NCBI GenBank assembly: GCA_025351485.1
Contig: JANXVU010000089.1
Location: forward strand, 6,513-70,512
Direction of reading: 5' to 3'
Source of the DNA: Candidatus Eiseniibacteriota bacterium
Lineage (GTDB): Bacteria; Eisenbacteria; RBG-16-71-46; JACRLI01
Length of the DNA stretch: 64,000 bases
Each line of letters opens with the position of its first letter. The stretch's first letter is position 1. Position numbers and translations under genes: made by a program. Below are positions 32,732-54,288 of the stretch, piece by piece. The notes under the pieces were generated by a model. It did no database searches, was not told the DNA's origin, and was given only the letters and a program-made list of their open reading frames with translations.

Positions 32732-34663
32732 CTAGTAGCTTCCGGAGGACGAATCCGGCGGCGCGTCGGACGAAGAGTCCGAGGCCTCCGTCGGCGGCGT
32801 TTCCTGCTCGGGGGCCGGGGCCGGCTCCGGCGCCGCCACGGGCTCGGGTAGGGCCGGCTCGGCCGCCACCGGCTCTTCCACCGGCTCCGGCTCCTTCAAT
32901 CCTTCCAGCACCGCCCTGGCCCACGCCGGTGCATTCTTCTTCCGGATGATGCCGCGAAAGCCCCTCGACTCGCTCCGGAGGTCGGGCGATGCCCCGGCCC
33001 TGAAACTGCATGTGATCCCGGTCTCTCCCGAATTGAACGCGCCGCCCCGCGCGGAGTACCGCGCGCCCGGACGCGTCACGCCCTCGGCCAATTCTTCCGC
33101 CGTGCCCGCGCCGCCCGCGATCATCTCGAAGATCTCCTTCACGAACTTGTCGCGGCAGATCTCGGAGACGTTGCCGTTCATGTCCACGAGCCCCCACGGG
33201 TTGGGCTTCTTCTGGCCCACCGGGTGGGTGACGCCATTCGAATTGTCGCTGAACCAGGCGCGCTCGGGGTCCTTGGAGTCGCCCCACGGGTAGCGGGTGC
33301 GGGTGCCGGCGCGGCAGGCGTATTCCCATTCGGCTTCGGACGGGAGCTCGGCGCCCACGGCGTCGCAGTACTTGCGCATTTCGTTCCAGCTCAGGTACAC
33401 CGCCGGGTTTTTTTCACCGCCGTCCAGGGAGATGGCATCGTTCAGGGCGCCGTGGCGGACTTCGATGTCGGTCAGGCCGTGCGGGTCGCGCTCCTTCTTG
33501 GGGGTGGGCATGTAGCGGGACGGCAGCACCTGCGCGCGCACCGAACAGAACTCGCAGCTCTTGTCGTGCCCGGTGTGCTGGGCCAGGAAACGCTCCCAGG
33601 TGATGGGAGTCTTGTCGATCAGGAACGTGTCGAGCGTCACTTCCACGGGCGGCTGTTCGGCCGGTGTGCCGTCCGCATCGCCCATCAGGAACGTGCCGGC
33701 CGGGACCAGCACCATCACCGACCCATCGGTGGTGCGGCGGAACTCCGGCAGGCCCTGCTCGTTCGTCCCCAGCGGCTCCAGGCGCGGGCCGGTCTCCTTG
33801 GCCGGGCCGGCGGCGGCGGTCGACCCGCCCGCTCCAGCCGGGGCGCTCCACGAGCCGGCGCCGATTTCGGGCATGGAACCGGACGAGCCGCCCAGCAGGG
33901 AAGAGAGCTCCGCGAGGCTGCTCATGCGCTGGTCGGGCTCGCGCGCCAGCAGCCTGGAGAGCAGCGCCCGGGCCGCTTCAGGGGCCGGGGACAGGTCGGC
34001 ATCCCGGGTCATGATGGCGGCGATGACCTGGCGCGGCGATCCCGTGAACGGCGGGCGTCCGGTGAGCATTTCGAAAAACACCGCGCCCAGGGAAAAGAGC
34101 GTGGCGCGCGAGCTGGCGCCGATCTCTTCGTATTCCGGAGCGGTGTAGGCCGAGAGCGTGAAGTTGGGGGGCAGCTTGCGAGTGGCGAACAGCGACGGCA
34201 GGAAGTAGTCGTCCAGCTTGGCGCCGTCATCCCGCAGGCACACCGCGTCCGGGTACAGCACCGGCATCGGGACGCCGCGGTCTTCCATGGTCTTCAGGGC
34301 CCGCGCCAGGTCGCGCAGGTAGCCCAGCGCCGCGTCAGCCCCCAGCGATCCGCCGGAGGCGATCCGGTCGCGCAGGGTGGTGCCCGCGGCTTCGGTCACC
34401 ACCAGCAGATCGCCGCCCTCGCTGTCGTTCAGCTTGAAATCCAGGATGCCCAGGAGCCCCACGGAAAAGGGCTCCGCGATGGTCTCCAGGTCCGAGGTCT
34501 GCGGGGAATGTTCCGGTGAAACCGACTTCAGGCTCGCCTTGACCCCGGACTGGCCGCGCACGCTGTACTGTTCGTAGATCTCGTTGCGGCGCAGCCCCAG
34601 CTCGACGGTCCAATCGCCGAGCGGGCTCTTGTCGGGGCTGTAGCGAAACCCGTCGCTAGACAA
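32732..34663 (-). CDS. Pseudokinase-like domain fused to a formylglycine-generating-enzyme (FGE/SUMF1) family domain
   Basis: The N-terminal about 270 aa has a kinase-like fold with an APE motif, but the Gly-loop, VAIK Lys, HRD and DFG motifs are degenerate. The C-terminal about 250 aa match the FGE-sulfatase domain (…FLMGD… NPWGL.DM.GNV.E…). It overlaps the upstream ClpB/V-like gene by 8 nt, so the two are probably co-transcribed. Confidence 0.65.
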   Translation of the reverse strand: MSSDGFRYSPDKSPLGDWTVELGLRRNEIYEQYSVRGQSGVKASLKSVSPEHSPQTSDLETIAEPFSVGLLGILDFKLNDSEGGDLLVVTEAAGTTLRDRIASGGSLGADAALGYLRDLARALKTMEDRGVPMPVLYPDAVCLRDDGAKLDDYFLPSLFATRKLPPNFTLSAYTAPEYEEIGASSRATLFSLGAVFFEMLTGRPPFTGSPRQVIAAIMTRDADLSPAPEAARALLSRLLAREPDQRMSSLAELSSLLGGSSGSMPEIGAGSWSAPAGAGGSTAAAGPAKETGPRLEPLGTNEQGLPEFRRTTDGSVMVLVPAGTFLMGDADGTPAEQPPVEVTLDTFLIDKTPITWERFLAQHTGHDKSCEFCSVRAQVLPSRYMPTPKKERDPHGLTDIEVRHGALNDAISLDGGEKNPAVYLSWNEMRKYCDAVGAELPSEAEWEYACRAGTRTRYPWGDSKDPERAWFSDNSNGVTHPVGQKKPNPWGLVDMNGNVSEICRDKFVKEIFEMIAGGAGTAEELAEGVTRPGARYSARGGAFNSGETGITCSFRAGASPDLRSESRGFRGIIRKKNAPAWARAVLEGLKEPEPVEEPVAAEPALPEPVAAPEPAPAPEQETPPTEASDSSSDAPPDSSSGSY

Positions 34664-37163
34664 GCTTCACCACCACCTGTCCGTTCTCGGCGGTCACCAG
34701 GGCCTTTTTCCCCTCGGTCGAGTCCTCGCCGATCAGCAGGCGCGCCAGCGGGCTCATCACGCGCTCGTCGATCACTCGCGCCACCGGGCGGGCGCCCATC
34801 TCCGGGTCGTAGCCGTCGTGGGCCAGGATGTCGCGGGCGTCCTTGCTGATCTCGAACTTCACGCTCTGCTCGTCGAGCAGCTTCTGCACACCCTTGAGCT
34901 GCAGATCCACGATCTTGCCCACCTGCGGCTCGGTCAGCTGGTGGTAGACCACCAGCTTGTCGAAACGGTTGAGCAGCTCGGGACGCAGCCCCGCGCCGAT
35001 GAGCCGCTCGCGCAGTTCCTTGTCGTCCACCTGGACGCCGCGGGCGTCGTGCTCCGCGATCCAGGTGCCCGAGAGGTTGCTGGTCAGGATCACCACGGTG
35101 TTGGAAAAGTCCACCAGCCGGCTCTGCCCATCGGTGAGGCGCCCGTCGTCCAATACTTGCAGGAGCGGGTCCAATACCTGGGGATGCGCTTTTTCGATTT
35201 CGTCGAACAGGATCACCGAGTACGGCCGGCGCAGCACCGCGTTGGTGAGCGCGCCGCCGGCTTCGTAGCCAACGTAGCCCGGCGGGGGGCCAGTCATGCG
35301 CTGCACGGTGTGCTCGCCCTTGAACTCGGACATGTCGAACCGGATCATGGCCTTCTCGTCGTTGAACAGGAAGGCGGCCAGCGCCTTGGCCAGCTCGGTC
35401 TTTCCGGTGCCGGTCGGTCCCAGGAACAGGAAACGTCCCACCGGCAGGTTCTTCTTCTTCAGCCCGGTCCGCCCGCGCCGCACCGCGTCGCCCACCGCGG
35501 CCACCGCGTCCTCCTGGCCGATCACGCGCTCGTGCAGGTACTCTTCGATGTGCTGCAGCCGCTCTCGCTCGTCGCCCATCATGCGGTGCACCGGGATGCC
35601 GGTGCGGATGGAAACGCGGCGCGCCACTTCCACGTCGGTCACTTCCTTTTTCAAATCCGCGATGTGGCGGAGCATCTCCTTGTGGAGATTTTCAGCGGCC
35701 ACGTCCTCTTTGATCAGCCCGCGGTCGCGCAGGGCCCGCTCCAACTGCTGCACCGGTCCCTCGGGGGGCTCCACGCCGTCGGGGCCGGCCACGGGGGGGG
35801 CGGCTCCGCTTTCCAGCGCCGGCTTGGCCAGCTCGGCCATCTCGCACAGGATCCGCACGTCGGCCGCGGCCTCGTCCAGCAGGTCCACGGCCTTGTCGGG
35901 CAGGAAGCGGTCCGGGATGAACTTCTTGGACAGCTTCACCGCCGAGTCCAGCGCGCCCTCGGCGATGGTGACGCCGTGGTGCTTCTCGTACTTGGGCTTC
36001 ACGCCCTTCATGATCTTCAGGCACGCCTCGAAATCCGGTTCCTCGATGTCCACTCGCACGAACCGGCGCGCGAATGCCGCGTCGGCCTCGATGTGCTTGC
36101 GGTACTCGCCCACCGTGGTCGCGCCCAGCACCCGCAGCTCGCCACGCGCCAGGGCGGGCTTCAGGATGTTGGCCGCGTCCATGCCGCCGCCGCCGCCGCC
36201 GGCGCCCAGCAGCATGTGGATCTCGTCTACAAACAGCACCACGTTGCTCTGGGCGGCGAGGTCCGCGAGCAGCTTCTTGAGCCGCTCCTCGAACTCGCCC
36301 TTGTACTTGGCGCCGGCCACCATGCCGGACAGGTCCAGCGCCAGCACCCGGGCGCCCTGCAGGAAGCTGGGCACGGTCTTCTGGACGATCGCCAGTGCCA
36401 GGCCCTCGGTGATGGCGGTCTTGCCCACGCCGGGCTCTCCGACCAGCACCGCGTTGTTCTTGCGGCGCCGGGCGAGCACCTCGATGGTCATCAGGATCTC
36501 TTTTTCGCGCGCGATCACCGGGTCGAAATGGCCCAGGCGGGCCTCGGCGGTGATGTCCTGGCAGTAGAGGACCGTGCTGGAAGCTCCGCCCGCGCGGGCG
36601 CCGCCTGGGGCCGCGCCCTCGGCCGCGCCTCCGCCTGAGGCTTCGCCGCCCACCATGGCGGCAGTGCTGCGGATCCTGGTGATGGCGTCCTTCACTCCCT
36701 TGGCCTTTAAGCCGATGGCATCGCGGGTCGCCGCGGGGATTCCGCCATCCCCGGAACACAGGGCTATGAGCAGATGCTCCTCGCCCACCTCCCGGTCCTC
36801 CAGCACCCCGCGCTCGGTTTCCGCCACCTCCAGCGCGCCGCTGAGGGCCGTGGAGACAGGCGGATCGAACGCCGGGCGCGAGGGTCGGTCCTCGTCATCC
36901 AGGCATTCTTCCACGATGGCGCGCGTGAGCACGATGTCCTTGCCCATCTGCGAGAAGATCTCAGGAAGAATGCCGTCCTCGGGCACCAGCAGCGAGAAGA
37001 ACAGGTGCAGCGGGTGCACCTCGGAGTGCCCGTGCTCCTTGGCGATCTCCTTGGCGCGGGCCAGTGCATCGGAAGCGCGTGGGCTCCAGCGGGTAATCGG
37101 CATGGTTGGGACTTCCCCCGGGAAGATTATGGTCAAGGGCGCGCGTAAGCCGCGCAGAGGCAC
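34656..37163 (-). CDS. ClpB/ClpV-family double-ring AAA+ ATPase (candidate T6SS TssH/ClpV; short middle domain)
   Basis: Clp N-domain, two AAA modules (GEPGVGKTAI… and FLFLGPTGTGKTELAKA…), sensor/ClpB_D2-small region. The inter-NBD M-domain is only about 75 aa, shorter than in canonical ClpB. It lies about 6 kb from the tssBC block. Confidence 0.8.
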   Translation of the reverse strand: MPLRGLRAPLTIIFPGEVPTMPITRWSPRASDALARAKEIAKEHGHSEVHPLHLFFSLLVPEDGILPEIFSQMGKDIVLTRAIVEECLDDEDRPSRPAFDPPVSTALSGALEVAETERGVLEDREVGEEHLLIALCSGDGGIPAATRDAIGLKAKGVKDAITRIRSTAAMVGGEASGGGAAEGAAPGGARAGGASSTVLYCQDITAEARLGHFDPVIAREKEILMTIEVLARRRKNNAVLVGEPGVGKTAITEGLALAIVQKTVPSFLQGARVLALDLSGMVAGAKYKGEFEERLKKLLADLAAQSNVVLFVDEIHMLLGAGGGGGGMDAANILKPALARGELRVLGATTVGEYRKHIEADAAFARRFVRVDIEEPDFEACLKIMKGVKPKYEKHHGVTIAEGALDSAVKLSKKFIPDRFLPDKAVDLLDEAAADVRILCEMAELAKPALESGAAPPVAGPDGVEPPEGPVQQLERALRDRGLIKEDVAAENLHKEMLRHIADLKKEVTDVEVARRVSIRTGIPVHRMMGDERERLQHIEEYLHERVIGQEDAVAAVGDAVRRGRTGLKKKNLPVGRFLFLGPTGTGKTELAKALAAFLFNDEKAMIRFDMSEFKGEHTVQRMTGPPPGYVGYEAGGALTNAVLRRPYSVILFDEIEKAHPQVLDPLLQVLDDGRLTDGQSRLVDFSNTVVILTSNLSGTWIAEHDARGVQVDDKELRERLIGAGLRPELLNRFDKLVVYHQLTEPQVGKIVDLQLKGVQKLLDEQSVKFEISKDARDILAHDGYDPEMGARPVARVIDERVMSPLARLLIGEDSTEGKKALVTAENGQVVVKLV

Positions 37164-37312
37164 ATCCGAGGCATTGTAGGGCCCCCGGGGAGGCCGGTCA
37201 AATGGTGGAGTGGCCCCGGATCGGAGGTTGCAGACGCGGCCGGGAAGGCCCTACACTGCCAATCCAGATTCCGGACCCCAAATGTTCCGATTCCAATCAA
37301 GAGGAGGTCGCC

Positions 37313-37753: not shown

Positions 37754-37810
37754 GCGGGACCGGTTCGCCCCATGTCCTTGGATCACCTGATCTCCGGGAG
37801 GGAAACCCCA

Positions 37811-43017: not shown

Positions 43018-43304
43018 GGGGCGCTTCCTCCGGGTGAGTGCGGGGTCAGGATCGGAAAATTACTTCGCCTAGACTGCACCAAATCGGGCCGGACTGCAAC
43101 GGCGCGTTCGGCCGATTCCGGGGGGCCGGGGCCGGGCAACAGGCGGATCAAAAATAAATCGTCAACCCACCCCCTATATAGAATGATCCCGCGATTTGTC
43201 GCTTGGCAAAGACGGGCCGCTGCCTTACGTTCACCCCCTGTAAAATTGTCCTATATCCAGCCTCGCGGCTGGTGCGTTCGAGCCCGCAACCACGGAGGAG
43301 TATC

Positions 43305-43754
43305 GTGCCGAAGCAGAAATTCATCGGCGCTCAGCACGAGCGAGAAGCGGATCTCACCATGGGGGTGGAGATCCTCGACACGAACAAGACCCTTTTCGTC
43401 GCGGCCATGAATGAGCAGGCCGGAGACAACCCCGAGCCGATCCAGTGCCGGACCATGGGCGAGGTGTTCGACACCTTCAAGCCCAAGGTCGAGATCACCG
43501 TGGAAGGCGAGGACGGAGCCAACTCGGACGCCGAGATCAAGTTCAACCGTGTGGGCGACTTCCTGCCGGAATCCGTCATCGAGCAGTCCCCGGAACTTCG
43601 CGCGCAGCACACCGAGCTCCTGCTGCTCAAGGACCTCATGAACCAGCTGCGCAACAACAAGAGCCTGCGCAAGGCGGTGGACTCTCCCGACCGGGAAGTT
43701 CTCATCAAGGGTATCCAGGCGGCGCGCGCGGCCATCGGCGTGAAGGAGAGCTAG
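43305..43754 (+). CDS. tssB: T6SS contractile sheath small subunit TssB (VipA-like)
   Basis: About 150 aa, GGAGGAG RBS + GTG. Sits immediately upstream of the large sheath subunit. Sequence features are typical of TssB (…KQKFIGAQ…EREADLTMGVEILD…). Confidence 0.75.
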   Translation: MPKQKFIGAQHEREADLTMGVEILDTNKTLFVAAMNEQAGDNPEPIQCRTMGEVFDTFKPKVEITVEGEDGANSDAEIKFNRVGDFLPESVIEQSPELRAQHTELLLLKDLMNQLRNNKSLRKAVDSPDREVLIKGIQAARAAIGVKES

Positions 43755-43757
43755 TCC

Positions 43758-45179
43758 ATGGCAAACGAACAGGAACGCGCGCAAGAGCAGGCCGGAGCGG
43801 CCTACGCGGAACCGGCCAAGCCGGAAGACTTCACCTCGCAGCTCGCGGAGCTCAACGCTCCCAAGGCGGCGGGCAAGGCCGACGCCGCCATCGCGTGGCT
43901 GGGCAAGGCCATGCCGAGCGCTTCGGTGGAGGGCGCCAAGCTTCCGCCCATCGATCTGCTGGACCCGACCAAGAAGAAGCAGTACGAGGACCTGGTCAGG
44001 AACAAGAACTTTTCCGAGACCAAGGACCTGCTCGCCAAGCGGCTGAACGTCTGGAACGGCGCGCTCACGTCCTCCGAGGACCTTGAGACCCTCATCGAGA
44101 ACACCCAGCAGCGGCTGGAGAAGCTCGAGGAGCTGCTGAACAAGAACCTCAAGAAGGCGTTCGAGGTGATCCGCCCGCTGGAGACCAACTACCGCGCCGT
44201 GGACGGGTTCTTCATGAACGCCGCCGTGGAGGCGGGCGACAAGGTCGAGGTGAGCTTCCTGAACGCCTCCGCCGAGCAACTCCTGAACCCCGACGACCGC
44301 TCCATCTTCGAGGAAGGCCTTGCCGGCGCCATCCAGACGCGTTTCCGCGACTGGACGCTGAAGGAGACCTACTCGAACCTGTGCGTGCCGGGCTGGGTCG
44401 GCACGGTCCAGAACATCGACCGGCTGGGAATCCTGGGATCGCAGAACAAGGTCCAGGTGTTCTCGGACGCCGAGAACTACGAGAGCTTCAAGCAGCTCCA
44501 GGACAACCTGGACCAGCGGGCGTTCGAAGGCCTGCGTGGCGCCGGCCTGGAAAAGCAGTACGTCTCCCTGTTCGGCAACTGGCTGCTCGGGCGCAAGAAG
44601 TACGACTGGGAAGAAGACGACCTGTGGCTGCCGCCGTCGGCGCTGATGACCGGCGTGGTCTACAAGACCGACGAGACCAAGGGCATCCAGGAGGCCGCGG
44701 CCGGTTACCGCAAGGGCAAGATCCAGGGCTCGACCGGCGTGCGTTTCCGCGTCGATCGTCCCACCGGCGGCAAGATGCTGTTCCAGTACGGAGTCAGCCC
44801 GGTGGTGGACTGGGACGGCTACCCGATCGCCATGGGCGACGCCAACCTCTCGAGCAAGGAAGGCGTGGACGCTTACCCGCGCATCCGGACCGAGGACTGG
44901 CTGCTCAAGAACGTGTGCCACTACCTGAACAAGCAGGCCTACCAGAACATCACCGACACGTTCCGTTCGGCGGTGAAGGCCGACCTGCACGACTTCCTTT
45001 CCAAGTGCACCGGCCCGGACAGCGAAGTGAAGAGCTTCGACATCCAGGTGCAGGCCACCCCGGAAATGGAAAAGCGGCACGAAGTGGACGTGGTGCTGAC
45101 GGTGAAGTTCCAGAACTCGGTGCGTTCGTTCAACGTGAAGGTCAAGGAGGCCGACGCCCAGGTCCAGCAGGGCGCTTAG
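43758..45179 (+). CDS. tssC: T6SS contractile sheath large subunit TssC (VipB-like)
   Basis: 473 aa with the typical TssC length and conserved C-terminal sheath-domain blocks (…GYPIAMGDANLS…, …DVVLTVKFQNSV…). The tssB-tssC pairing is T6SS-specific. Confidence 0.8.
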   Translation: MANEQERAQEQAGAAYAEPAKPEDFTSQLAELNAPKAAGKADAAIAWLGKAMPSASVEGAKLPPIDLLDPTKKKQYEDLVRNKNFSETKDLLAKRLNVWNGALTSSEDLETLIENTQQRLEKLEELLNKNLKKAFEVIRPLETNYRAVDGFFMNAAVEAGDKVEVSFLNASAEQLLNPDDRSIFEEGLAGAIQTRFRDWTLKETYSNLCVPGWVGTVQNIDRLGILGSQNKVQVFSDAENYESFKQLQDNLDQRAFEGLRGAGLEKQYVSLFGNWLLGRKKYDWEEDDLWLPPSALMTGVVYKTDETKGIQEAAAGYRKGKIQGSTGVRFRVDRPTGGKMLFQYGVSPVVDWDGYPIAMGDANLSSKEGVDAYPRIRTEDWLLKNVCHYLNKQAYQNITDTFRSAVKADLHDFLSKCTGPDSEVKSFDIQVQATPEMEKRHEVDVVLTVKFQNSVRSFNVKVKEADAQVQQGA

Positions 45180-45256
45180 CCGGATTTCCATCGAACGTCC
45201 TCGGGTCCGCGGGTTGCCGCGGGCCTTCAAGGCAACCGTAACTCCAGGGAGCAATC

Positions 45257-45655
45257 ATGGCGCAGGAACCCAAGCTCAAGGTGGATGGAACCGCGGTTCC
45301 CAACCTGCTCTCGGTCTCCTACGGCCTCCGGGCCGGCGTGGACCGTGACGGGCGTCCCACCCGCATGCTCATCTTCGACGGAATCACCATTCGCCGAATC
45401 GGCGATGCCAAGACGACCCTCGCCAACTGGGCGAAGGACCCCAAGGAAAAGAACCGCAAGAGCGGGGAGATCGAGTTCTTCGGGGACGCCGGCAAGGCCA
45501 TCAAGAAACTGACCTGGAAGAACGGGTTCGTGAAGCACTACGACCTCCGTTACAATCCCGAGGCTGACCATGTGGAAGAGACTGTCGTGATCCAGGCCGA
45601 AGAGATCAACTCCGGCGGGATGAAGATCGAATGCCACTGGGCCGACAAGCAATAG
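45257..45655 (+). CDS. hcp: Hcp-like inner tube protein (paralog 1)
   Basis: 132 aa, located between tssC and vgrG. Sequence is β-rich, similar in size to Hcp family members. Assignment rests mainly on size and synteny. Confidence 0.55.
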   Translation: MAQEPKLKVDGTAVPNLLSVSYGLRAGVDRDGRPTRMLIFDGITIRRIGDAKTTLANWAKDPKEKNRKSGEIEFFGDAGKAIKKLTWKNGFVKHYDLRYNPEADHVEETVVIQAEEINSGGMKIECHWADKQ

Positions 45656-45669
45656 CGGAGGAATAGAAC

Positions 45670-46089
45670 ATGCCGATTCGTCAAATCAAGGTGGAGATCG
45701 ACGGCAAGCACATTTCCAACGTGCTCGCCGTGGACTACGGCCTGGAAGTGAGCCACGACGCCGACGGCAGCCCGAGCGATGCCCGCCCGCGCCTTGCCCG
45801 CATCTGCGTCACCCGCAAGACCGATGATTCGACGCAGCTGGGGGACTGGGCCTGCAAGCCCTTCCGCGGCCACTTCAAGTCCGGCAAGATCAGCTTCTTC
45901 GCGCCGGACGAAGAGACCAAGGTGCAGTCCACCATGTCATGGACCGATGGGTTCGTGACCCTGTACCGCGAATGGGTGCCGGACGTGCAGACGCACCGCG
46001 GGGATCCGATGGTGGAGTACATCGAGATCTCGGCCCAGAAGATCAAGATCAACGATACGGAAGTGGACGCGGACACCTGGACCACCTAG
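45670..46089 (+). CDS. hcp: Hcp-like inner tube protein (paralog 2, divergent)
   Basis: 139 aa. Shares the N-terminal pattern (…I.V.IDG…VS..YGL…) with paralog 1. GGAGGA RBS. Confidence 0.5.
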   Translation: MPIRQIKVEIDGKHISNVLAVDYGLEVSHDADGSPSDARPRLARICVTRKTDDSTQLGDWACKPFRGHFKSGKISFFAPDEETKVQSTMSWTDGFVTLYREWVPDVQTHRGDPMVEYIEISAQKIKINDTEVDADTWTT

Positions 46090-46189
46090 CCGAGGTGGCC
46101 CACGGAGGCTGATCGCGGAGTCGTCCGATGGGGCGTGCGCTTGATCCGGCGCACGCCCCGTCCGATTTTTTGAGGCCGGGAGAAAAATC

Positions 46190-48151
46190 ATGTCAGCGCA
46201 TGCGGATATCGACGTCAAGATCGGCGGCAAGACCGCCGTCGACCTGGGAATCAAGCTCGGGCGGCTGGTGCTGAATGAAGCCCTCGGGGCGCACGCCACG
46301 TTCTCCCTGGAGTGCCACGCGCTGGACGAGGGCCAGGCCGTGCAGGTTTCGGGCAGCCAAGCCAAGCTGGACGACCTGTTCAAGCAGCTGGGCAAGGACC
46401 TGGAGATCACCGTCCTGTCGCCCGACCGAAACACCACCCGCCATTCGCTGCAGTTCGTCGGCCTGGTCACCGACGTGCACAGCCAGCGCCTGCGCGGGGG
46501 CGGCTATACGGTGTTCCTGGACGGCAAGAGCCACACCATCCTGATGGACATGGAAACCCACTACCGGTACGGCCCGCTGGACGACTCTGCCCGCCACCTG
46601 CGCACCTTCCTTGAAGTGATCACCGGCGAGTACGGAACCCTGTGCGCCCTGCAACTCAGCGCCAACCCGGTGGTGGACTACGGCATGCAGTCGGCCGAGA
46701 CCGATTTCAATTTCGTGAACCGCCTGGCTCAGCGCGAAAAGGCGTGGTGCTTCTACGACGGCGTGAAACTCCAGATCACCGACCAGCTCCCGTCCCAGGT
46801 GGTGGATCTGACCATGGGCCCGAACCAGGCCGAGGACGCCCTGGACGCATTCCGCATCCGCACCGCTCTGGCGGTGGGCTCCGTGGGCGTGGCCACCGAG
46901 GACTGGAAGACCGGAACGTTCATGGCGGTCAAGACCGACACCCTGGCGCTGCCGGCGGCCATCCACCCGTGGGCGCAGCAGACCCGCTCGGTGTACGAGG
47001 CCAAGAAGACCCACATCCAGGCCGAGTTCGCCGAGCGGCACATGGCCAGCCAGAGCGAGCTCGAGGGATACCTCACCGCCCGCAAGGCCGCGTGGGCCAG
47101 TCACCTGGTCCAGGTCGAGGGCAACTCGTCCAACGCCGACGTGCGGATCGCGCGCAAGGTCAACCTGACCGCCCTGGGCGTGGGCCAGGCCTCCAAGTAC
47201 GTGGTCTCGAGCGTGTCCCACACCATGGACATCTTCCGGGGCACCTACGAGAACCACTTCGAGGCGTTCCCCGAGGAGGGCGCGACCCCGCGCCAGTCCC
47301 ATCACCGCGAGCAGGCGCTGGAACTGTGCGAAGCCCGGGTGATGACCCAGGGCGACGACGACCACGTGGGCCAGGTGCAGGTGCAGTTCTTCGGCGCCGG
47401 CCAGCGCGGCCAGATGTGGGCCCGGGTGGCCCAGCCCATCGCGGGCAAGGGCGCGGGCATGTTCGTGATCCCCGAGACCGGCGACAGCGTGATGGTCTCG
47501 TTCCTGGACGGCGATCCCAGCCGGCCCGTGGTGGTGGGCAGCGTCTATCGCGGCCAGGCCGCGGGCAAGCCCAAGACCTGGGACGACGTGGACAACGTCG
47601 CCAAGAACACCAAGAAGATCTGGCACACCCGCAGCGGCCACAAGATCGTGTTCGAGGACGACCCGGACGGCAGCAAGACCGACGGGACCATCCTGATCAT
47701 CACCGGCGACGGCAAGAACGAGATCAAGCTCACCGGCAAGGGCGGAACCGAAAAGATCGAGATCCGCACCAAGGGCAACATCGCGATCGGCGCCGACGGT
47801 TCGATCAGCATGAGCGCCGGGGGTGATATCCACCTGGAAGCCGGCGGCGAAATCGGGCTCAAGTCCAAGAAGAAGACCACCGTGGACGCGACCGAGGACG
47901 CGATCGTGAAGTCCAAGAAGAACATCACCTTGAGTGCGACCGAGGACGGCAAGTTCGAGGCCACCAAGAACCTGGAGCTTTCGGCCACGCTGAAGCTGGC
48001 TGCTTCGGGAAAGACGGGCGCCAAGGTGTCCACGCCCGCGCAGCTGGAGGTTTCGGGAACGGCGTCGGCCAAGCTCTCCGGCGGGACCGGTTCGGTCACC
48101 TGCGATCCGGCCGGAGTGACGGCCATGGGCCCGATGATCAAGCTGAACTAG
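46190..48151 (+). CDS. vgrG: VgrG spike protein (gp27/gp5-like, with C-terminal β-helix repeats)
   Basis: Phage baseplate-V/gp5 OB-fold signature (…VIPETGDSVMVSFLDGDPSRPVVVGSVY…). N-terminal gp27-like region. C-terminal repetitive β-helix (…KIEIRTKGNIAIGADGSISMSAGGDIHLEAGGEIGLKSKK…). Confidence 0.85.
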   Translation: MSAHADIDVKIGGKTAVDLGIKLGRLVLNEALGAHATFSLECHALDEGQAVQVSGSQAKLDDLFKQLGKDLEITVLSPDRNTTRHSLQFVGLVTDVHSQRLRGGGYTVFLDGKSHTILMDMETHYRYGPLDDSARHLRTFLEVITGEYGTLCALQLSANPVVDYGMQSAETDFNFVNRLAQREKAWCFYDGVKLQITDQLPSQVVDLTMGPNQAEDALDAFRIRTALAVGSVGVATEDWKTGTFMAVKTDTLALPAAIHPWAQQTRSVYEAKKTHIQAEFAERHMASQSELEGYLTARKAAWASHLVQVEGNSSNADVRIARKVNLTALGVGQASKYVVSSVSHTMDIFRGTYENHFEAFPEEGATPRQSHHREQALELCEARVMTQGDDDHVGQVQVQFFGAGQRGQMWARVAQPIAGKGAGMFVIPETGDSVMVSFLDGDPSRPVVVGSVYRGQAAGKPKTWDDVDNVAKNTKKIWHTRSGHKIVFEDDPDGSKTDGTILIITGDGKNEIKLTGKGGTEKIEIRTKGNIAIGADGSISMSAGGDIHLEAGGEIGLKSKKKTTVDATEDAIVKSKKNITLSATEDGKFEATKNLELSATLKLAASGKTGAKVSTPAQLEVSGTASAKLSGGTGSVTCDPAGVTAMGPMIKLN

Positions 48152-48170
48152 GCCGGGGTCCGCGAGTTCG

Positions 48171-49031
48171 ATGGCCCTTCCATTCCCGGTCCGGCGGTCC
48201 ATGTCCGGCGGCGCCGGCGGTTCGGCGCTGCCGCCCCTGCGTCTGCCCTTCACCATCGTGAGCACCGCCTCCAGCGGGCGCGCGCCCGCCGCGGGCCGGC
48301 GCAGCTGGGGCAACCGGCTGGGGCTCTGGTGGACCGATGCCGAGGAGGGCGAACCGGGCGTGGTGGTGACCGGCCTGCTGCCGCACGGGCCCGCATCCGC
48401 GGGCGGCGCGGTCAAGGTTGGCGACCTGGTGGTGGAAGTGGAAGGGGCGCGCGTCACGACCCTGGGAGACATCACCCGTTTTCTGGAAAACCAGGGCCCC
48501 GGACCGCTCCGCATGACCGTCAAGCGCGGCCCGCACGAGGAGCACACGGTGGTGCTGGACGTCCCGCCCGAGCCCGGAGAGGCCGCCGCGTCTGCCGCGG
48601 GGCCCGCCGGGGGCTACTCGGCCCGTGTTCCCACGACCGACCTCCTCGACTCGCTCAAGCGCAACATCGAGTGGATCCTGGGCAACCCGGTGCAGAGCGA
48701 GATCACCCACCCGGGAGTCTCCGCCGATCCCGAATTTGGCTGCCTGGGGGCGGACCTTGAATTCAGCCTGCGCACGGTGGGCCTGTCGGAAATCCGAAAC
48801 GCCATCGTGCAGTGCGAGCCCCGGCTCAAGGAAGTGGAAGTGGAGTCGGCCGAGTTCGAGGTGCGCGAAGAGGGCGAGGTCTCGCTCAAGCCGGGGATCC
48901 GCGTTCACGCCCTGATGTCCGGCACCGGGGAAAAGATCAAGATCGAATTGGAAGTCGCGGGCCTGGCCCGGGCGCGGTTCACCAACCGCCGCCGCACATC
49001 GGTGGAAGACGCGGGACTGGAGGGGCGGTAG
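48171..49031 (+). CDS. tssE: PDZ domain fused to gp25-like baseplate wedge protein (TssE-like)
   Basis: The N-terminal about 140 aa contain a PDZ-like fold (…GVVVTGLLPHGPASAGGAVKVGDLVVEVEGARVTTLGDI…). The C-terminal about 130 aa match the GPW/gp25 family (…LLDSLKRNIEWILGNPVQSEI…AIVQCEPRL…). High GC3 across both parts. Confidence 0.6.
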   Translation: MALPFPVRRSMSGGAGGSALPPLRLPFTIVSTASSGRAPAAGRRSWGNRLGLWWTDAEEGEPGVVVTGLLPHGPASAGGAVKVGDLVVEVEGARVTTLGDITRFLENQGPGPLRMTVKRGPHEEHTVVLDVPPEPGEAAASAAGPAGGYSARVPTTDLLDSLKRNIEWILGNPVQSEITHPGVSADPEFGCLGADLEFSLRTVGLSEIRNAIVQCEPRLKEVEVESAEFEVREEGEVSLKPGIRVHALMSGTGEKIKIELEVAGLARARFTNRRRTSVEDAGLEGR

Positions 49032-50759
49032 ATGGCGAGTGGATCCATGAGCCGAGGATGGGGCTGGCTCAAGCCCGAGGAGCGCGACTTTGAGGCCGTG
49101 CTCCGGCGGCTGCACAAGGAAGCCTCCGAATCCATCCCCGGCCTTTCGCCCGACCCCAAGCAGGCCGACCCGGTGATCGTGATGCTCCTGCGCGCGTTCG
49201 CGCGCGAATACGTGGAGCTCTACCATCTGCTGGACGACTCGGTGGGCATGGCCTACCGAACCCTGGTTTCCCGCCTGGTGGCGTTCCCGCACGCTCCCGA
49301 GCCCGCCACCACCGCCCTGCAGCTGGTGGTGAAGGACGCCGGCGCCAAGGTGCCGATCGACTTCGAGGCCATCTCCTCCCAGCCCGTGATCCTGGCAGGC
49401 AGGCGCAGCGTGCAGGCCCACTTTTCGCCCTACGACGAGGGCGTGGTGTCCAGCTTCGAAGCGGGACCGGTGGCGCTGGTGGAGCCTTCGGGCGTGGCCT
49501 GGCGGATGAGCCTGAACCCCAATGAGACTTCCGCGGGCCGCTGGCAGGCGCCGCCTCGCAACTACGCTTCGCTGTTCCTGGCCCTGGATTCACCCTCGCC
49601 CTCGGCCACCGACCCGGTCACGGTGTTCGTGCACGGGGGCGACCGCGCGGTGCAGCAGTGCCTGTGGTCGCGCTGGGTGATTCCGGCCTCCCAGGGGGGG
49701 CCGGCCATCCGGATCCACGACAACGTGCCGGAGCCGTTCGTGCCGGGGAAGGTGTTCTACGAGGGCGCCCCGTTCGAGCCCCCGATGTTCACCTTCCGCA
49801 GCGACGCGCGGCGCATCCGCAGCCCCTACGAGCCGCAGTTCGTGAAGGTCGGCGGCGAGGCGCTGCTCTCCCAGGCGTGCCCGTTCCCCAGGGAACTGGG
49901 GTCCCCGGGAGTGGCGCTTTCGCAGCCCCACGGCACGCGCCACTGGGTGCGGGTCGACCTGCCGCCCGACGTGGACCTGACGGCGCTGCGGCAGGTGCGC
50001 TTCGCCACCAATGCCGTGCTGGCCGCCAACCGCGAGCTGCGCACCTCGGGCGCGATCAACGTGGACGCCACACCCATCCACACCTGGCTCTTCCCCGAGA
50101 CCGTCGATTTCGATTCGCTGCTGCGCCTGGAACGGGTGATCGACCTGAAGTCGGGGCACCTGTACCAGTCGTCGGACTCGCACGAAGGCCTGGAGTCCCC
50201 GCGCGCCTACCGCCTGGTGGAGTGGCTGGACGGCGAGCGGCGGGCGCTCAAGGTGGAATTGCTGAACCGCGAGGACACTCCGCGGGCGAGCCAGGTGGAA
50301 ATCGTGTACTCGCTCACGCTGGGCACGGCCGCCAACGGGCTGGAGCCGGGCACGATCAGCCAGGTGTTCACGCCGCCCCAGGTGTTTCCGGGTCTCCTGT
50401 CCGTCAATAACCTGGTCCCGGCGATCGGCGGACGCCCGGCGCGCACCGCGGACCTGCAGGAAGACGAACTCCGCGCCGCGCTGCGCCACCGCGGCCGCAC
50501 GGTGGTCGCGAGCGACTACCTGGAGTCCGCGCGCGCGTTCGATCCGGATCGCGTCACGTCCGTTTCCCTGGGCCGGGGCGTGGCCCGTGGCCCGCGGGGG
50601 CTCCGCAGCACGGTGCGCCTGGACGTGGAGCTGAACGCCGCGGCGTTCGTAAGCGCCATGGAGCGCGAGTCGTTCCGTCTGCGCCTCGAAGGCTACCTGC
50701 AAGACCGGTCTGCGATGGGCGAGTGCGTCGAGGTGCGGCTGGCCGGAGGGCCCGCTTGA
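49032..50759 (+). CDS. tssF: Baseplate protein TssF-like (gp6-like)
   Basis: 575 aa. The N-terminal block (…DPVIVMLLRAFAREYVELYHLLDDS…) fits the TssF N-terminal consensus. Position after tssE. Confidence 0.6.
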   Translation: MASGSMSRGWGWLKPEERDFEAVLRRLHKEASESIPGLSPDPKQADPVIVMLLRAFAREYVELYHLLDDSVGMAYRTLVSRLVAFPHAPEPATTALQLVVKDAGAKVPIDFEAISSQPVILAGRRSVQAHFSPYDEGVVSSFEAGPVALVEPSGVAWRMSLNPNETSAGRWQAPPRNYASLFLALDSPSPSATDPVTVFVHGGDRAVQQCLWSRWVIPASQGGPAIRIHDNVPEPFVPGKVFYEGAPFEPPMFTFRSDARRIRSPYEPQFVKVGGEALLSQACPFPRELGSPGVALSQPHGTRHWVRVDLPPDVDLTALRQVRFATNAVLAANRELRTSGAINVDATPIHTWLFPETVDFDSLLRLERVIDLKSGHLYQSSDSHEGLESPRAYRLVEWLDGERRALKVELLNREDTPRASQVEIVYSLTLGTAANGLEPGTISQVFTPPQVFPGLLSVNNLVPAIGGRPARTADLQEDELRAALRHRGRTVVASDYLESARAFDPDRVTSVSLGRGVARGPRGLRSTVRLDVELNAAAFVSAMERESFRLRLEGYLQDRSAMGECVEVRLAGGPA

Positions 50760-51787
50760 CCGCCGCCCTTCAACTGATCATGCCGGACCTGCTGGCCGAG
50801 CGGCCGGGGGATGCGGTGGAGAGTGCGATCCTGTCCCTGGTGGAGATGGGCGCAGACCGCCAGCAGATCGAACTCATCCCGGTGGGCATCTTTCGCCGCT
50901 ACCGCGGCCAGCTGCTGGGCTTCTACCCCGCGCTGGGCGTCGAGGTCCGGCAGGGCGACACCATCCGCCTCTACGTGGCCGAGCGGGGCCTGGCCGACCG
51001 GCTGCCCGAGGGGCTGCTCGCCCCGCTCCCCGACGAGGGCCGGCCCGAAAGCGTGTTCGACACCCAGAACGGCGGGATCATTCCTCCGACCGGGTGGGAG
51101 GCGCCTCCGGATGGGGCGCCGGGGCAGGGCTACGACCCGGAGGAACTGTTCCACCGCCAGCTGGACGGCGGCCGCAAGCTGCTTCGCCTGCTGGACCGGG
51201 CGCTGCGACGGGCCCGCCGGGACGTGATCTTGCAGCGGCAGTCGCTGAAGTTCCTGGTCAATGATCCTCGATTTGCCCGGAACCTCCTGGGCCTCCTGCA
51301 CCTGGAGGCGCTGGATTCGGGGGATGCGGCGGCCGTTTATGCAGCGGCCTCGCTGGCGGGCTTCCAGGACGCCGTGGGCACGCTGGAAGAGGCTGCCGCC
51401 TTCCTGGCCCAGCTGTTCCAGGTGGAGGTGCGGGCCGAGGAGGCCCGCGCGGGAATGCTGCCCATTCCCAAGCCGCTGCACATGAAGCTCGGCGGCCCCA
51501 ATGCCCGGCTGGGGCAGGGCAGCGTGCCGGGACGGAACTTCCGCGACCCCCGGCCGGCGGTCAAGCTGCTCGTGGGCCCCATGGGCGCCGAAAATGCCGC
51601 GCGCCGCTACCGGGACGAGTGGGCCCGGCGCTCGTTCGAAAACGCGGCCGCTGCCATGGTGCCGGCTTCCCGACCTTTCAAGGTGATCTATGACGTGGTC
51701 CGGGAGGAGCGCAAGGCGCGCCCCGGGCTTCTGCCGCACGCGCTGCTGGGGCAGACGATGTACCTGGGACGCCCCCGAACCGCCTGA
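50756..51787 (+). CDS. tssG: Baseplate protein TssG-like
   Basis: About 340 aa, translationally coupled to tssF (candidate TTG overlapping TGA). Assignment rests on size and synteny; sequence is weakly diagnostic. Confidence 0.45.
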   Translation: MTAALQLIMPDLLAERPGDAVESAILSLVEMGADRQQIELIPVGIFRRYRGQLLGFYPALGVEVRQGDTIRLYVAERGLADRLPEGLLAPLPDEGRPESVFDTQNGGIIPPTGWEAPPDGAPGQGYDPEELFHRQLDGGRKLLRLLDRALRRARRDVILQRQSLKFLVNDPRFARNLLGLLHLEALDSGDAAAVYAAASLAGFQDAVGTLEEAAAFLAQLFQVEVRAEEARAGMLPIPKPLHMKLGGPNARLGQGSVPGRNFRDPRPAVKLLVGPMGAENAARRYRDEWARRSFENAAAAMVPASRPFKVIYDVVREERKARPGLLPHALLGQTMYLGRPRTA

Positions 51788-51901
51788 CCGGACGCGCGGG
51801 GCACGAGTCCTGCACAACCGCCGGACGGTGTGGTAGAGTCCTGCTGGAATTGATCTTTCCCCGCCCGGCGGGGACCTAACCCAACGGAGAAATTGAGGCC
51901 C

Positions 51902-53335
51902 ATGCCCTTCGATCGCCGCGGATCCGTGAACTGGCAGGACGGGATGCTCATTGAATCGTCCCACCTCACGGCCGAGACGGAGTTCCTGCGTTCCCTGGCG
52001 GCCCGCTCCGCCCGGACCGCCCTGGGTTCGTTCGGCCTGTACGCCGACCCGGGCGAGACCGCCCCGCTGGACTTGCAAGTAAGCGCCTCCGGCGGGGAGT
52101 GCACGGCCGAGCTGCGCCGCTTCCGTGGATTTTTTCCGGACGGCACCTGGGTGGACTTCGACTCGCCCGAGGCCGGCACGGTGCTCGGCCGCACCATGCT
52201 GGAAGGCTCCGGCCCCAGCTCGGTGGGTGTGTTCCTGTACGCGCACGAGGATGAATTCCTGGGGATCGGCGAGCCCGACCCCGCCGACGACCCGCCGCGC
52301 AGCCCCTACCGGCTTCCCCGCCTGGAGCTCCGGCTCGGCGAGGACCCCAAATGGCCCCGGGGACGCAGCCTGCGCCTGGCCACCGTGCAGGTGAACGGAG
52401 GCGTCGCCGTGATGGATGGCGCGCACGTGCCGCCGTCCGCCACGCTGGCCTCGTGGCCGGCGCTGCGGGAGCTGGGGGAGCGCTACGGCGAATACCTGGA
52501 GCGGTGGCGCCGGCTGGCGATCGGCAACTTCATCACGCTGCTTCCCATCGCCACGGCGCCCGCGGGCGGGCTGGGGCGCGAGATCGCCTACGCCAAGCGC
52601 GAAACGGCTTTCCAGCTGGCGGTCGAGATTTCCCGCAACCAGTCGGCCCAGCCGCTGCTCACCCGGGTGGGATCGCCCGCCGAGTGGTTCGCCTCGGTGC
52701 AGACCAACGCCCGCCTGATCGCGACGCTGCTGGAGCTGAACCGCGACCTGGCCGGAGCCATGCAGGACGGCGCCAATTTTGCAGCGGCCATGGGCACGCT
52801 GCGCGACACCTCCACGTTCGACGTGTACCAGGAATCGCTGCGGGCGATGGTCCAGCAGGTGGAAGTGTTCATCGACGCGGTGGAGACGCTCCTGACCGGT
52901 CTGTTCGAGGCGCGCGAGGGCGAGAAGGACGTGCTGCGCTACCGCGACAAGGAGTACGCGTTCACTCCGTACGCCAAGAGAGTGTACCGGCGCGAGTCCG
53001 ACCGCGAATACCTCGAGATCCAGGGGCTCTCGGCCTCCGAGGTGGAGGACTACGTCGTGCTCATGAAGGGCGGCATCGGCGCGGCGGTACGCAAGTCGCC
53101 GCCCAACACCCACGTGGGGCCCAACGAGCGCTCCACCTGGCCCCAGGCCGACCCGGCGTTCGTCGACCACACCTTCATGGACGGCGCGGCCCTGTTTCAC
53201 CCCCATGGATTCCAGCCGCAGCGCGAGATCAACCGCCTGACCCTTATCTGCATCGGCGGCGGCGACCTCTCGATCTTCGAGCAGGGCGATGACCAGGACG
53301 TGCGAGTGTTCATTCGCAGGAAGGCGAGTTCGTAG
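51902..53335 (+). CDS. tssK: Baseplate protein TssK-like
   Basis: About 477 aa. The N-terminus …VNWQDGMLIESSHL… resembles the TssK 'W.EGM.L.PQHFQ' start. Position after tssG. Confidence 0.55.
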   Translation: MPFDRRGSVNWQDGMLIESSHLTAETEFLRSLAARSARTALGSFGLYADPGETAPLDLQVSASGGECTAELRRFRGFFPDGTWVDFDSPEAGTVLGRTMLEGSGPSSVGVFLYAHEDEFLGIGEPDPADDPPRSPYRLPRLELRLGEDPKWPRGRSLRLATVQVNGGVAVMDGAHVPPSATLASWPALRELGERYGEYLERWRRLAIGNFITLLPIATAPAGGLGREIAYAKRETAFQLAVEISRNQSAQPLLTRVGSPAEWFASVQTNARLIATLLELNRDLAGAMQDGANFAAAMGTLRDTSTFDVYQESLRAMVQQVEVFIDAVETLLTGLFEAREGEKDVLRYRDKEYAFTPYAKRVYRRESDREYLEIQGLSASEVEDYVVLMKGGIGAAVRKSPPNTHVGPNERSTWPQADPAFVDHTFMDGAALFHPHGFQPQREINRLTLICIGGGDLSIFEQGDDQDVRVFIRRKASS

Positions 53336-53343
53336 GACCACCT

Positions 53344-54288
53344 ATGCCCACGCTAGTCGAAAACATCGACAACCTGTTTGCGGAGATCGGCGCGCTCGAA
53401 AAGGGCGGCGCCTTTTCCCCGGATTCGTTCAACCAGAACCTGAAGGGCATCCTTTCGGCGTTCGAGCTGCTCCGCAACCAGCAGGAGCTGGGCTCGATGG
53501 CCGACGACGCCCTGTACACGCGCATCCGCGAGGTGGAGCCCACCGAGTCGCAGCTGCGCTTCCTGACCTCCCACATCCTGGGGATGTACCTGGAAGCGTG
53601 GGCCCACGGACCTTCGGGCTACCGCCGCTCCTACCAGGACCTGCTGCGCTTCCGGCCCGACGACGCGCGAGTGGACGGCGACTTCATCGAGATCGTGCTC
53701 ATGCCGCGCCTGCTGGTGCTGCGCGACCTGGGCGGCCAGGCCGACCTGGGCTACCACCTGTTGATGCACCTGGCCGACTATCTGCAAACGTTCGGCGCTC
53801 CCTCCGGCCTGCCCGCCAGGCCCACGCGCGCCGACCTGGAGGCGATGGGCCCGTCCAGGCTGCTGCTGGGTTTCGCGCGGCGCCGGCTGGCGTTCCCGGG
53901 CAAGCGCCTGGTGGACATGCCGGACGCCTGGGAATACGGGCTGGCCCGCGAAAAGTACTTCGAGTCGCTGCGGGTCCGGGGCAAGAAGCTGCAGCTGGAC
54001 CTGGAAGCCTACCTGCTCCGGCTGGACCTGCTGAGCAAAGTGCCCTGGTGGAAGCGCCTGCTGGATGCCATCGGGCGCTTCTTCCGCGCGATCGGCACGT
54101 GGCTGGGAGCCAGGCTGGAAAAGCTGCCGGCCGGCGGAGTGTTCTGGTCGGCGTTCTGGGTGGTTTTTTCGCTCGCGGTGATGGTGGGCGTGACCCTGCT
54201 GTGGCTCTCCTTCTATGAACATCGCCTGCGGGACTTCCGCGGCAAGGGCCTGAACGCGCAGACGCGCGACATGGAGGTGGTCAAGTGA
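53344..54288 (+). CDS. Cytoplasmic protein with single C-terminal TM anchor: candidate TssL/DotU-like membrane-complex component
   Basis: 314 aa. One predicted TM helix near the C-terminus (…GVFWSAFWVVFSLAVMVGVTLLWLSF…) with a short tail. Topology and position after tssK resemble TssL; there is no sequence-level proof. Confidence 0.35.
   Translation: MPTLVENIDNLFAEIGALEKGGAFSPDSFNQNLKGILSAFELLRNQQELGSMADDALYTRIREVEPTESQLRFLTSHILGMYLEAWAHGPSGYRRSYQDLLRFRPDDARVDGDFIEIVLMPRLLVLRDLGGQADLGYHLLMHLADYLQTFGAPSGLPARPTRADLEAMGPSRLLLGFARRRLAFPGKRLVDMPDAWEYGLAREKYFESLRVRGKKLQLDLEAYLLRLDLLSKVPWWKRLLDAIGRFFRAIGTWLGARLEKLPAGGVFWSAFWVVFSLAVMVGVTLLWLSFYEHRLRDFRGKGLNAQTRDMEVVK

Follow-up and report, generated by a model that had tools for sequence, protein, structure and literature searches.

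A 64,000-nucleotide stretch of contig JANXVU010000089.1 from a Candidatus Eiseniibacteriota bacterium (positions 6,513 to 70,512 of the forward strand; hereafter the window) carries two overlapping minus-strand genes that encode a Clp/Hsp100 ATPase dedicated to a T6SS (type VI secretion system), together with a predicted cytoplasmic protein in which a putative pseudokinase is fused to a domain of the FGE/SUMF1 fold. Inspection of both proteins, their relatives and their gene neighborhoods points to an undescribed accessory subunit of the T6SS, where the ClpV is of a known kind and its accessory partner is new, in a poorly described T6SS lineage. The explanation we favor, still tentatively, is that one gene of the pair encodes the ClpV/TssH-type recycling ATPase of a rare and divergent T6SS and the other a lineage-specific, cytoplasmic, non-enzymatic accessory subunit that would serve as adaptor or scaffold. 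To our knowledge, ClpV recruitment and timing are understood in just a handful of systems, all proteobacterial, by way of the TssC helix, TagJ or, in Francisella, ClpB. If a kinase/FGE fusion that is conserved and non-catalytic is co-translated with ClpV, it would represent a new solution to ClpV recruitment and timing, as well as a new example of two enzyme folds reused as scaffolds. The T6SS literature was searched for a pseudokinase, an FGE partner of ClpV or a T6SS in Eisenbacteria, and this pair was not described in what was found.

The gene pair and its ATPase

The two minus-strand open reading frames (ORFs) span 34656..37163 and 32732..34663 in a window of ~68% GC, and both show a third-codon-position GC content of 0.89-0.90, which is the coding signature of the window's other genes. 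The true start of the first is the ATG at 37103 and not the GTG at 37163, as this start matches the identical database protein P0121 and orthologues of 795-830 amino acids (aa). The longest ORF, from GTG 37163, is 20 codons too long and would overlap the divergent Peptidase_C70 ORF. The elements of the pair are as follows.

34656..37103, minus strand: clpV/tssH-type Clp/Hsp100 ATPase gene, 815 aa (Pfam, NCBIfam, ClpB alignment, clade, middle-region and neighbor-joining tree evidence)
32732..34663, minus strand: pseudokinase-FGE gene, 643 aa, TTG start
34656..34663, minus strand: 8-nt stop/start overlap of the two genes (TTGTCTAG), from the junction reading
37173..37201, minus strand: sigma-70-like promoter match TTGACC-17-TACAAT, 10/12, a consensus match only, ~70 nt upstream of the clpV ATG

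The clpV 3' end reads AAG CTT GTC TAG and the 5' end of the pseudokinase-FGE gene reads TTG TCT AGC GAC. Because the junction reads so in both frames, the 8-nt overlap is real, which bears out the two-gene arrangement described in an earlier, sequence-only reading of this DNA. Such an overlap implies, from the junction letters, that clpV and the pseudokinase-FGE gene are probably translationally coupled, and the identical overlap recurs in the related loci L004, L006 and L088 and in the P0008 contigs. The sigma-70-like site is the sole one between 32000 and 38000, where shuffled sequence gives a mean of 0.3. The gene downstream of the pair is convergent, such that the operon in the window comprises these two genes only.

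Pfam agrees with the domain content first read from the letters, a Clp ATPase followed by a kinase-like and FGE protein. The ATPase matches Clp_N, AAA, AAA_lid_9, AAA_2 and ClpB_D2-small, which corresponds to an N-domain, a D1 ring, a middle (M) region at approximately residues 420-483 and a D2 ring. The Walker A and B motifs are intact in D1 (GEPGVGKT and VDEIH) and in D2 (GPTGTGKT and FDEIEKA), as are both pore loops (KYKGEFE and GYVGYE). These motifs, together with the double-ring Clp/Hsp100 architecture and the position in a T6SS locus near tssBC, are shared with canonical proteobacterial ClpV/TssH. That functional class is further characterized by an N-domain that binds the N-terminal helix of TssC and by disassembly of the contracted sheath. 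The ClpB family has no ClpP-docking loop; as in canonical ClpV/TssH, the D2 ring of the window ATPase aligns to ClpB without a sizeable insertion, and neither a UVR motif nor a ClpP loop was seen in the ATPase.

In an alignment to PDB sequences, ATPase residues 420-483 correspond to residues 405-526 of E. coli ClpB, that is to say 63 versus 121 residues, and the short middle domain noted earlier is therefore genuine. M-region lengths taken from a 40-sequence alignment place this value in context.

Window ATPase: 63 aa
Clade of the window ATPase: 52-77 aa
13 ClpB: 119-125 aa
Three annotated proteobacterial TssH: 99-130 aa
ClpK and ClpC-like proteins: 55-60 aa

The sequence-only reading had taken the short M-domain as a ClpV-like feature. 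The long M regions of the three canonical TssH defeat that argument: shortness of the M-domain is no hallmark of canonical ClpV, and the length instead resembles that of ClpC and ClpK. Within the clade the M region is Pro/Ala/Gly-rich, of low complexity and poorly conserved, and does not form a conserved coiled coil. The middle domain is accordingly considered vestigial, being short, Pro/Ala/Gly-rich and poorly conserved.

Family models place the ATPase outside both curated families, ClpV1 and ClpB. The ClpB model (TIGR03346) gives its best score, 822.7, which is below the cut-off of 1232.1; the ClpV1 model (TIGR03345) gives 652.6 against a cut-off of 884.95 and matches in two stretches, and the ClpA score of 665.6 is below cut-off too. 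The ATPase shares 45% identity with E. coli ClpB and 34-35% with canonical TssH, and it aligns in one stretch with ClpC structures. Despite the likeness to ClpB in score and identity, the protein is not a ClpB family member, as it is under the cut-off and its M region is not a full-length (~120 aa) coiled coil.

A search of 5.8 billion proteins resolved the relatives of the ATPase into a discrete group (P0121-P0139) with 54-100% identity and at least 797 bits, separated by a sharp score gap from ordinary ClpB at ~40% identity and no more than 661 bits. For each clade member whose context was looked up, the gene sits within a T6SS locus or next to T6SS genes. The genes tssB and tssC were seen with the window ATPase (tssB 6 kb away) and in L001, L004, L089 and L090; on short contigs the context consists of flanking PAAR/effector genes (L088 and the P0008 contigs) or of downstream tssK-like and GTPase genes (L091). 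The ATPase is thus, by context, a T6SS-dedicated ClpV-type unfoldase of the disassembly type, as had been proposed; the score gap, a vestigial M-domain and a context confined to T6SS loci among the members looked up led to rejection of a housekeeping ClpB identity.

Descent was addressed with a neighbor-joining tree (Kimura distances, 772 columns, 200 bootstraps) that holds three canonical (proteobacterial) TssH sequences. The ATPase clade and the subclade linked to the pseudokinase gene each receive 100% bootstrap support. The clade groups with canonical TssH in 92% of replicates and with ClpB in 1%, although long-branch attraction is possible for this grouping because identity runs the opposite way. 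The ClpV side of the proposed ClpB-versus-ClpV split is tentatively favored by the tree and opposed by the higher ClpB model score, and the ATPase is probably ClpV-type by descent.

The pseudokinase-FGE protein

No transmembrane (TM) segment or signal peptide is predicted for the pseudokinase-FGE protein, and it is consequently predicted to be cytoplasmic. An AlphaFold2 model built from a 77-sequence alignment has a mean pLDDT (predicted local distance difference test) of 86.9 and shows two confident domains joined by a disordered linker and followed by a disordered tail.

33887..34663, minus strand: pseudokinase domain, residues 1-259, complete bilobal kinase fold (alignments, Foldseek)
33797..33886, minus strand: interdomain linker, residues 260-289, disordered, Gly/Ala/Ser-rich, pLDDT 40-48, poorly conserved
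32870..33796, minus strand: FGE/SUMF1-fold domain, residues 290-598, catalytic Cys pair missing
33545..33577, minus strand: H363-x2-H366-x3-C370-x2-C373 motif inside a family-specific insert of ~45 aa
32735..32869, minus strand: C-terminal tail, residues 599-643, disordered, Pro/Glu/Ala/Ser-rich, pLDDT 42-66, absent from most orthologues

The Pfam Pkinase match of the N-terminal domain is weak and partial, covering profile positions 73-254 only. Foldseek comparison with the PDB nonetheless returns the whole kinase domains of PknB, PknA and Stk1 with TM-scores of 0.73-0.78 over ~260-270 columns, and pLDDT is mostly above 85 across residues 1-259. The state of each kinase motif was read from an alignment of 14 orthologues with active kinase-FGE homologues.

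Gly-loop GxGxxG: lost; all 14 orthologues have [LV]R[RW]xxxYEQY instead (RRNxxYEQY in the window)
Beta3 VAIK Lys, K46: kept; invariant in 16/16 aligned sequences and in the 14 orthologues
AlphaC Glu: present only in closer orthologues, not conserved in distant ones
HRDxKxxN: M133-P134-V135-x-Y137-x-x-A140; Asp, catalytic-loop Lys and Asn lost, with no Asp in any orthologue
DFG: D152-Y153-F154 in the window; D-Y/H-F/Y in the family (DDY or DDH), with the D152 Asp invariant
APE: kept

Judged by these residues, the kinase-like domain is a pseudokinase, as the sequence-only reading had it. That reading had also listed the catalytic Lys and the DFG motif as lost with the Gly-loop and HRD; of these, the Gly-loop and the HRD Asp are truly gone, together with the Lys and Asn of the catalytic loop, and APE is indeed retained, but K46 and D152 are both still present. 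No conserved phospho-acceptor Thr was found in the activation loop or linker across the 14 orthologues.

The closest full-length homologues are Ser/Thr kinase-FGE-sulfatase proteins such as Proteo1, which share the domain order and are 26-29% identical over 65-83% of the query. In contrast to the window protein, HRDxK is present in all 25 of the non-T6SS kinase-FGE homologues checked and DFG in all but two of them, and approximately half carry a TM segment between the two domains; they also have neither the RRNxxYEQY loop nor the HxxH...CxxC insert. In the bacterial Ser/Thr kinase atlas, Proteo1 is an active kinase family with an FGE-sulfatase domain. The same atlas describes seven pseudokinase families (MviN/MurJ ActPs3 and six others), all of which vary the VAIK Lys and are presumed to have a scaffold role. 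Although the present family resembles these in its Hanks-type fold and degraded catalytic triad, its losses are the HRD Asp and Gly-loop, with both the VAIK Lys and the DFG Asp retained, a pattern not reported in the atlas. The family comes from metagenome-assembled genomes (MAGs) only and falls outside the atlas classification.

The C-terminal domain matches Pfam FGE-sulfatase at residues 317-570 (2e-43, 149 bits), and Foldseek comparison with the PDB relates it to T. curvata FGE, PvdO and CalU17, with entries 5nxl and 5hha among the matches. Alignment with S. coelicolor FGE (2q17) places S545 at the first catalytic Cys and a gap at the second, so that both copper-binding cysteines are absent. 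The lone Cys near the C-terminus, C552, is replaced by Ser, Ala or Val in orthologues and is not conserved even in close ones. The earlier suspicion of a non-catalytic domain was therefore sound, and on its residues the domain is non-catalytic as an FGE. The HxxH-x3-CxxC motif is invariant in 14/14 orthologues, its insert is absent from active kinase-FGE homologues, and it probably represents a structural Zn site.

Use of the FGE fold as a pure binding scaffold has T6SS precedent in Tsi3 and in TagR (COG1262). Tsi3, as described in a preprint, comprises stand-alone FGE-like T6SS immunity proteins encoded in tandem arrays beside a tse3-like effector in Proteobacteria. Both Tsi3 and PorK/GldK of the type IX secretion system resemble the present domain in lacking the catalytic cysteines and in using the fold as a non-enzymatic binding or structural scaffold within a secretion system. 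PorK differs in being a lipoprotein of the ring complex, whereas the present protein is predicted to be cytoplasmic. A PorK/GldK-like ring lipoprotein was rejected for the window protein, as the TIGR03525 match is partial at 62.2 bits against a cut-off of 350 and there is no lipoprotein signal or other signal peptide.

Conservation of the pair and competing explanations

The full-length pseudokinase-FGE family is rare. It comprises 11 clusters at 90% identity and was found at two loci among 185,579 species-representative genomes, at four loci among 241 million metagenome records, and as four representatives and one fragment among 1.84 billion 50%-identity representatives. In the last search the family extends down to 190 bits, and ordinary kinases reach no more than 127 bits.

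Where gene context is visible, clpV lies immediately upstream of the pseudokinase-FGE gene in 9/10 lineages, mostly with the same 8-nt overlap, and conservation of the pair in T6SS loci, which had been put forward as a check, is established. The pair occurs in the window and L086, L006 and L098, L088, L004/L005, the P0008 contigs, L087, L001-3 and L091. These lineages are only 47-60% identical to one another, and because the pair recurs in nine of ten independent lineages the adjacency is not due to chance. Genes in L001 and L091 run in the order clpV, pseudokinase-FGE, tssK-like, a gene of ~310 aa, DO-GTPase2 and a gene of ~170 aa, and the pseudokinase-FGE gene overlaps tssK by 8 nt. In the window, L004 and L088 the pair is intact although tssK and its neighbors sit in the tssBC operon. 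The order in L001 and L091, with the pair joined to tssK, is apparently the older one.

Identities between the window and L001 provide a measure of constraint across the system.

TssC: 71%
TssB: 63%
ClpV: 59%
Hcp: 55-61%
Pseudokinase-FGE: 47%
TssF: 46%
gp25: 38%
TssK: 34%
VgrG: 31.5%
314-aa protein: 30%
DO-GTPase2: 27%

The pseudokinase-FGE protein is about as conserved as TssF, and its constraint is thus comparable to that of a core baseplate subunit.

Further on in L001 and L091 there follow an opposite-strand FHA gene, a PP2C gene and a membrane Pkinase-family gene. The kinase/Fha regulatory modules anticipated by the sequence-only reading are therefore present in sister loci, but in the window no FHA or PP2C module adjoins the T6SS cluster, and neither there nor in the L004, L088 and P0008 loci do FHA, PP2C or kinase genes lie beside it. 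The membrane Pkinase gene of L001 (20081-21820, plus strand; a partial equivalent starts at 11894 in L091) adjoins the FHA and PP2C genes. Its own motifs are degenerate, with VLVR for VAIK (Lys to Arg), HLD for HRD, RPET for KPxN (Asn to Thr) and GFG for DFG, such that both kinase-like proteins of the L001 locus may be pseudokinases, leaving it without an obviously active kinase. An origin of the pseudokinase as a duplicate of this membrane gene was considered and rejected, as the two are only 24% identical over 172 aa.

In the explanation we favor, the accessory protein would have descended from soluble Ser/Thr kinase-FGE proteins, losing its phosphotransfer residues and FGE cysteines with both folds under strong purifying selection. 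It would be made in a fixed ratio with ClpV by translational coupling and, in the apparently older gene order, would be coupled to TssK too. In this adaptor or scaffold role, ClpV would be bound by one domain, and the other would engage a component of the baseplate (TssK) or of the sheath, or else a peptide motif lodged in the FGE groove, which would then be a peptide-binding module; the arrangement would place ClpV at the contracted sheath or baseplate or gate its action there. The occluded kinase cleft, with RRNxxYEQY in place of the Gly-loop, may have a structural or allosteric role. A non-enzymatic adaptor or scaffold is favored because the protein is predicted to be cytoplasmic, both enzymatic centers are lost, the folds are conserved, the two genes appear to be co-translated, and the gene stays with clpV when tssK moves.

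Several observations weigh against this explanation. In L007/L101 the gene is preceded not by clpV but by a PAAR-M91 effector gene and a 212-aa ORF. The more distant ClpV-clade members L089 and L090 lie in T6SS loci of the same type without a pseudokinase gene, and ClpV therefore does not strictly need the pseudokinase-FGE protein. The FHA, PP2C and kinase-like genes of L001 and L091 fit a signalling role equally well, and nucleotide binding or atypical catalysis is conceivable given that the beta3 Lys and DFG Asp are retained.

The principal alternative is that the protein is a signalling pseudokinase of a checkpoint resembling threonine phosphorylation, which docks with a membrane kinase-like sensor, FHA and PP2C and licenses T6SS assembly at the baseplate or membrane complex, the clpV link being merely operonic. 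We consider this possible but on the unlikely side. The order of L001 and L091, in which FHA (minus strand), PP2C and membrane Pkinase-family genes lie downstream of clpV, pseudokinase-FGE, tssK, the 310-aa gene and the GTPase, suits such a checkpoint, as does a fold nearest to PknB-type kinases, which signal via dimerization; bacterial pseudokinases are moreover thought to be scaffolds. These signalling genes are, however, not beside the cluster in the window, L004, L088 and P0008 loci, the L001 kinase is itself degenerate so that no clearly active kinase is visible, and a conserved phospho-acceptor Thr is missing from activation loop and linker. A further parallel lies in the H1-T6SS threonine phosphorylation pathway of Pseudomonas, where FGE-family and kinase-family domains are likewise T6SS accessory parts. 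COG1262 is the FGE family. TagR of Pseudomonas is assigned to COG1262 (PMC13584744), is periplasmic and activates the kinase PpkA. TagR as described is thus a separate periplasmic protein acting on an active transmembrane kinase, in contrast to the present fused protein, which is predicted to be cytoplasmic and catalytically dead; it has no signal peptide or TM segment, and the pair has no tagQ, tagS, tagT or ppkA neighbors in the window.

An enzymatic role is improbable. The protein might work, by means of the Lys and Asp it has kept, as an atypical kinase or as a switch that depends on nucleotide, or it might be an FGE-fold metalloenzyme that modifies a T6SS component through HxxH...CxxC. 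K46 and D152 are invariant, as is the family-specific His2Cys2 motif, and FGE-fold proteins include enzymes as varied as EgtB, PvdO, SenA and ToxD. On the other hand, all orthologues have lost the base Asp, the entire Gly-loop, and the Lys and Asn of the catalytic loop, the alphaC Glu is unconserved in distant ones, both FGE cysteines are absent, and the His2Cys2 spacing looks typical of a structural Zn site. It is very unlikely that the protein is instead an immunity or effector-associated protein of the Tsi3 kind that happens to occupy a variable part of the locus. FGE-like proteins do form a widespread T6SS immunity family, and the gene in L007/L101 comes after a PAAR-M91 effector and a small ORF. 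Tsi3 genes, however, stand in tandem arrays beside tse3 in effector-immunity modules of Proteobacteria, whereas the present protein is single-copy, fused to a kinase fold and predicted to be cytoplasmic, its place after clpV is fixed in nine of the ten lineages, and its conservation exceeds that of VgrG and effector-linked genes; Tsi3-like immunity was rejected on copy number, position, conservation and predicted location. Accidental adjacency of a housekeeping ClpB-type chaperone and an unrelated kinase-FGE protein is scarcely credible. The ATPase does score best with the ClpB model and is closer in identity to E. coli ClpB than to TssH, but this idea is already contradicted by the sub-threshold ClpB score and vestigial M-domain, by the gap between at least 797 bits inside the clade and no more than 661 outside, by a context that is always T6SS among members looked up, and by an adjacency that recurs across lineages only 47-60% identical.

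In L087 (4328-5616, plus strand) the pair is followed by dnaJ and a MerR-family (HspR-like) gene, placing a T6SS Clp ATPase beside heat-shock genes. T6SS-bearing contigs L006, L007, P0393, P0408 and P0010 carry conflicting MAG labels (Saccharimonadales, Acidobacteria, Actinomycetia, Eisenbacteria), and L006 has a GC content of 72.7%; at least some of these labels probably reflect mis-binning. Taxonomic statements are limited accordingly, since all members are metagenomic and the labels disagree, and the metagenomic origin of all members also sets a practical limit on experiments, which require heterologous reconstitution.

The surrounding T6SS locus

The T6SS core operon lies on the opposite strand, with effector-type and accessory genes between clpV and tssB.

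43203..56528, plus strand: T6SS core operon, in the order TssB, TssC (PF17541), two Hcp (PF17642), VgrG, PDZ-gp25 (TssE), TssF-like, TssG, TssK-like (weak match), 314-aa protein, 747-aa DO-GTPase2
48171-49031, plus strand: PDZ-gp25 (TssE), with an N-terminal PDZ domain
53344-54288, plus strand: 314-aa protein, single C-terminal TM segment at residues 270-288
54285-56528, plus strand: 747-aa DO-GTPase2 protein, one TM segment at residues 361-379 after an N-terminal NTPase domain
37106-37753, plus strand: Peptidase_C70 (AvrRpt2-like) gene, effector-type, between clpV and tssB
37783-38466, plus strand: PG_binding_1 (peptidoglycan-binding) gene, effector-type, between clpV and tssB
41844-42320 and 42331-43017, minus strand: PAAR protein with a TM segment and adjacent DcrB-like gene, between clpV and tssB

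The window T6SS belongs to a lineage that databases leave unannotated. Relatives of TssC form only 26 clusters at E ≤1e-20 among 5.8 billion proteins, all named "hypothetical protein", which split into a group of 67-93% identity and one of 45-50%. T6SS reviews and primary papers describe classes i-iv, TssJLM or TssNOPQR membrane complexes, and accessory genes, with no mention among them of a pseudokinase or of a ClpV partner with the FGE fold. Profile searches detected no TssJ, TssL, TssM or TssN-R families in the window T6SS cluster, and PDB sequence searches with the TssK-like, 314-aa and DO-GTPase2 proteins returned nothing useful. Judged from topology, the 314-aa and DO-GTPase2 proteins recall TssL and TssM, and the two may form the membrane anchor of the window T6SS. 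Both genes are kept after tssK in L001 and L091, with 27-30% identity. Because the sheath TssC belongs to only 26 "hypothetical" clusters, no TssJLM or TssNOPQR is recognizable and a GTPase membrane protein is encoded, the T6SS repertoire outside Proteobacteria and Bacteroidota is apparently under-described.

A bolder proposal, which we regard as speculative and a good way short of probable, is that the pair marks an unrecognized T6SS class in uncultured bacteria. Such a class would combine a Bacteroidota-type sheath and tube with neither TssJLM nor TssNOPQR, using a tail-anchored protein and a membrane DO-GTPase instead. The fusion of a dead kinase to a dead FGE would then be a new kind of Hsp100 adaptor that gates where and when ClpV acts, or would link firing to phospho-signalling by a degenerate module.

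Other genes of the window were inspected for links to the system. A 172-aa gene at 56653-57171 (minus strand) was considered as the counterpart of the 172-aa gene that follows the GTPase in L001 and was rejected, as the two show no similarity. A 996-aa protein encoded at 16955-19945 (plus strand) has an apparently complete Ser/Thr kinase domain fused to a STAND NTPase with TPR repeats; its gene neighbors serve polysaccharide synthesis, the pair is ~13 kb away, and no evidence was found to link it to the T6SS. PDZ-gp25 also occurs in L001, and in the sister loci L089 and L090 gp25 is without PDZ and has 130-142 aa. Two HEAT-repeat proteins are also encoded between clpV and tssB, where the DcrB-like gene may provide immunity, and in related loci a CHAP-domain gene upstream of clpV takes the place of the window's effector cargo.

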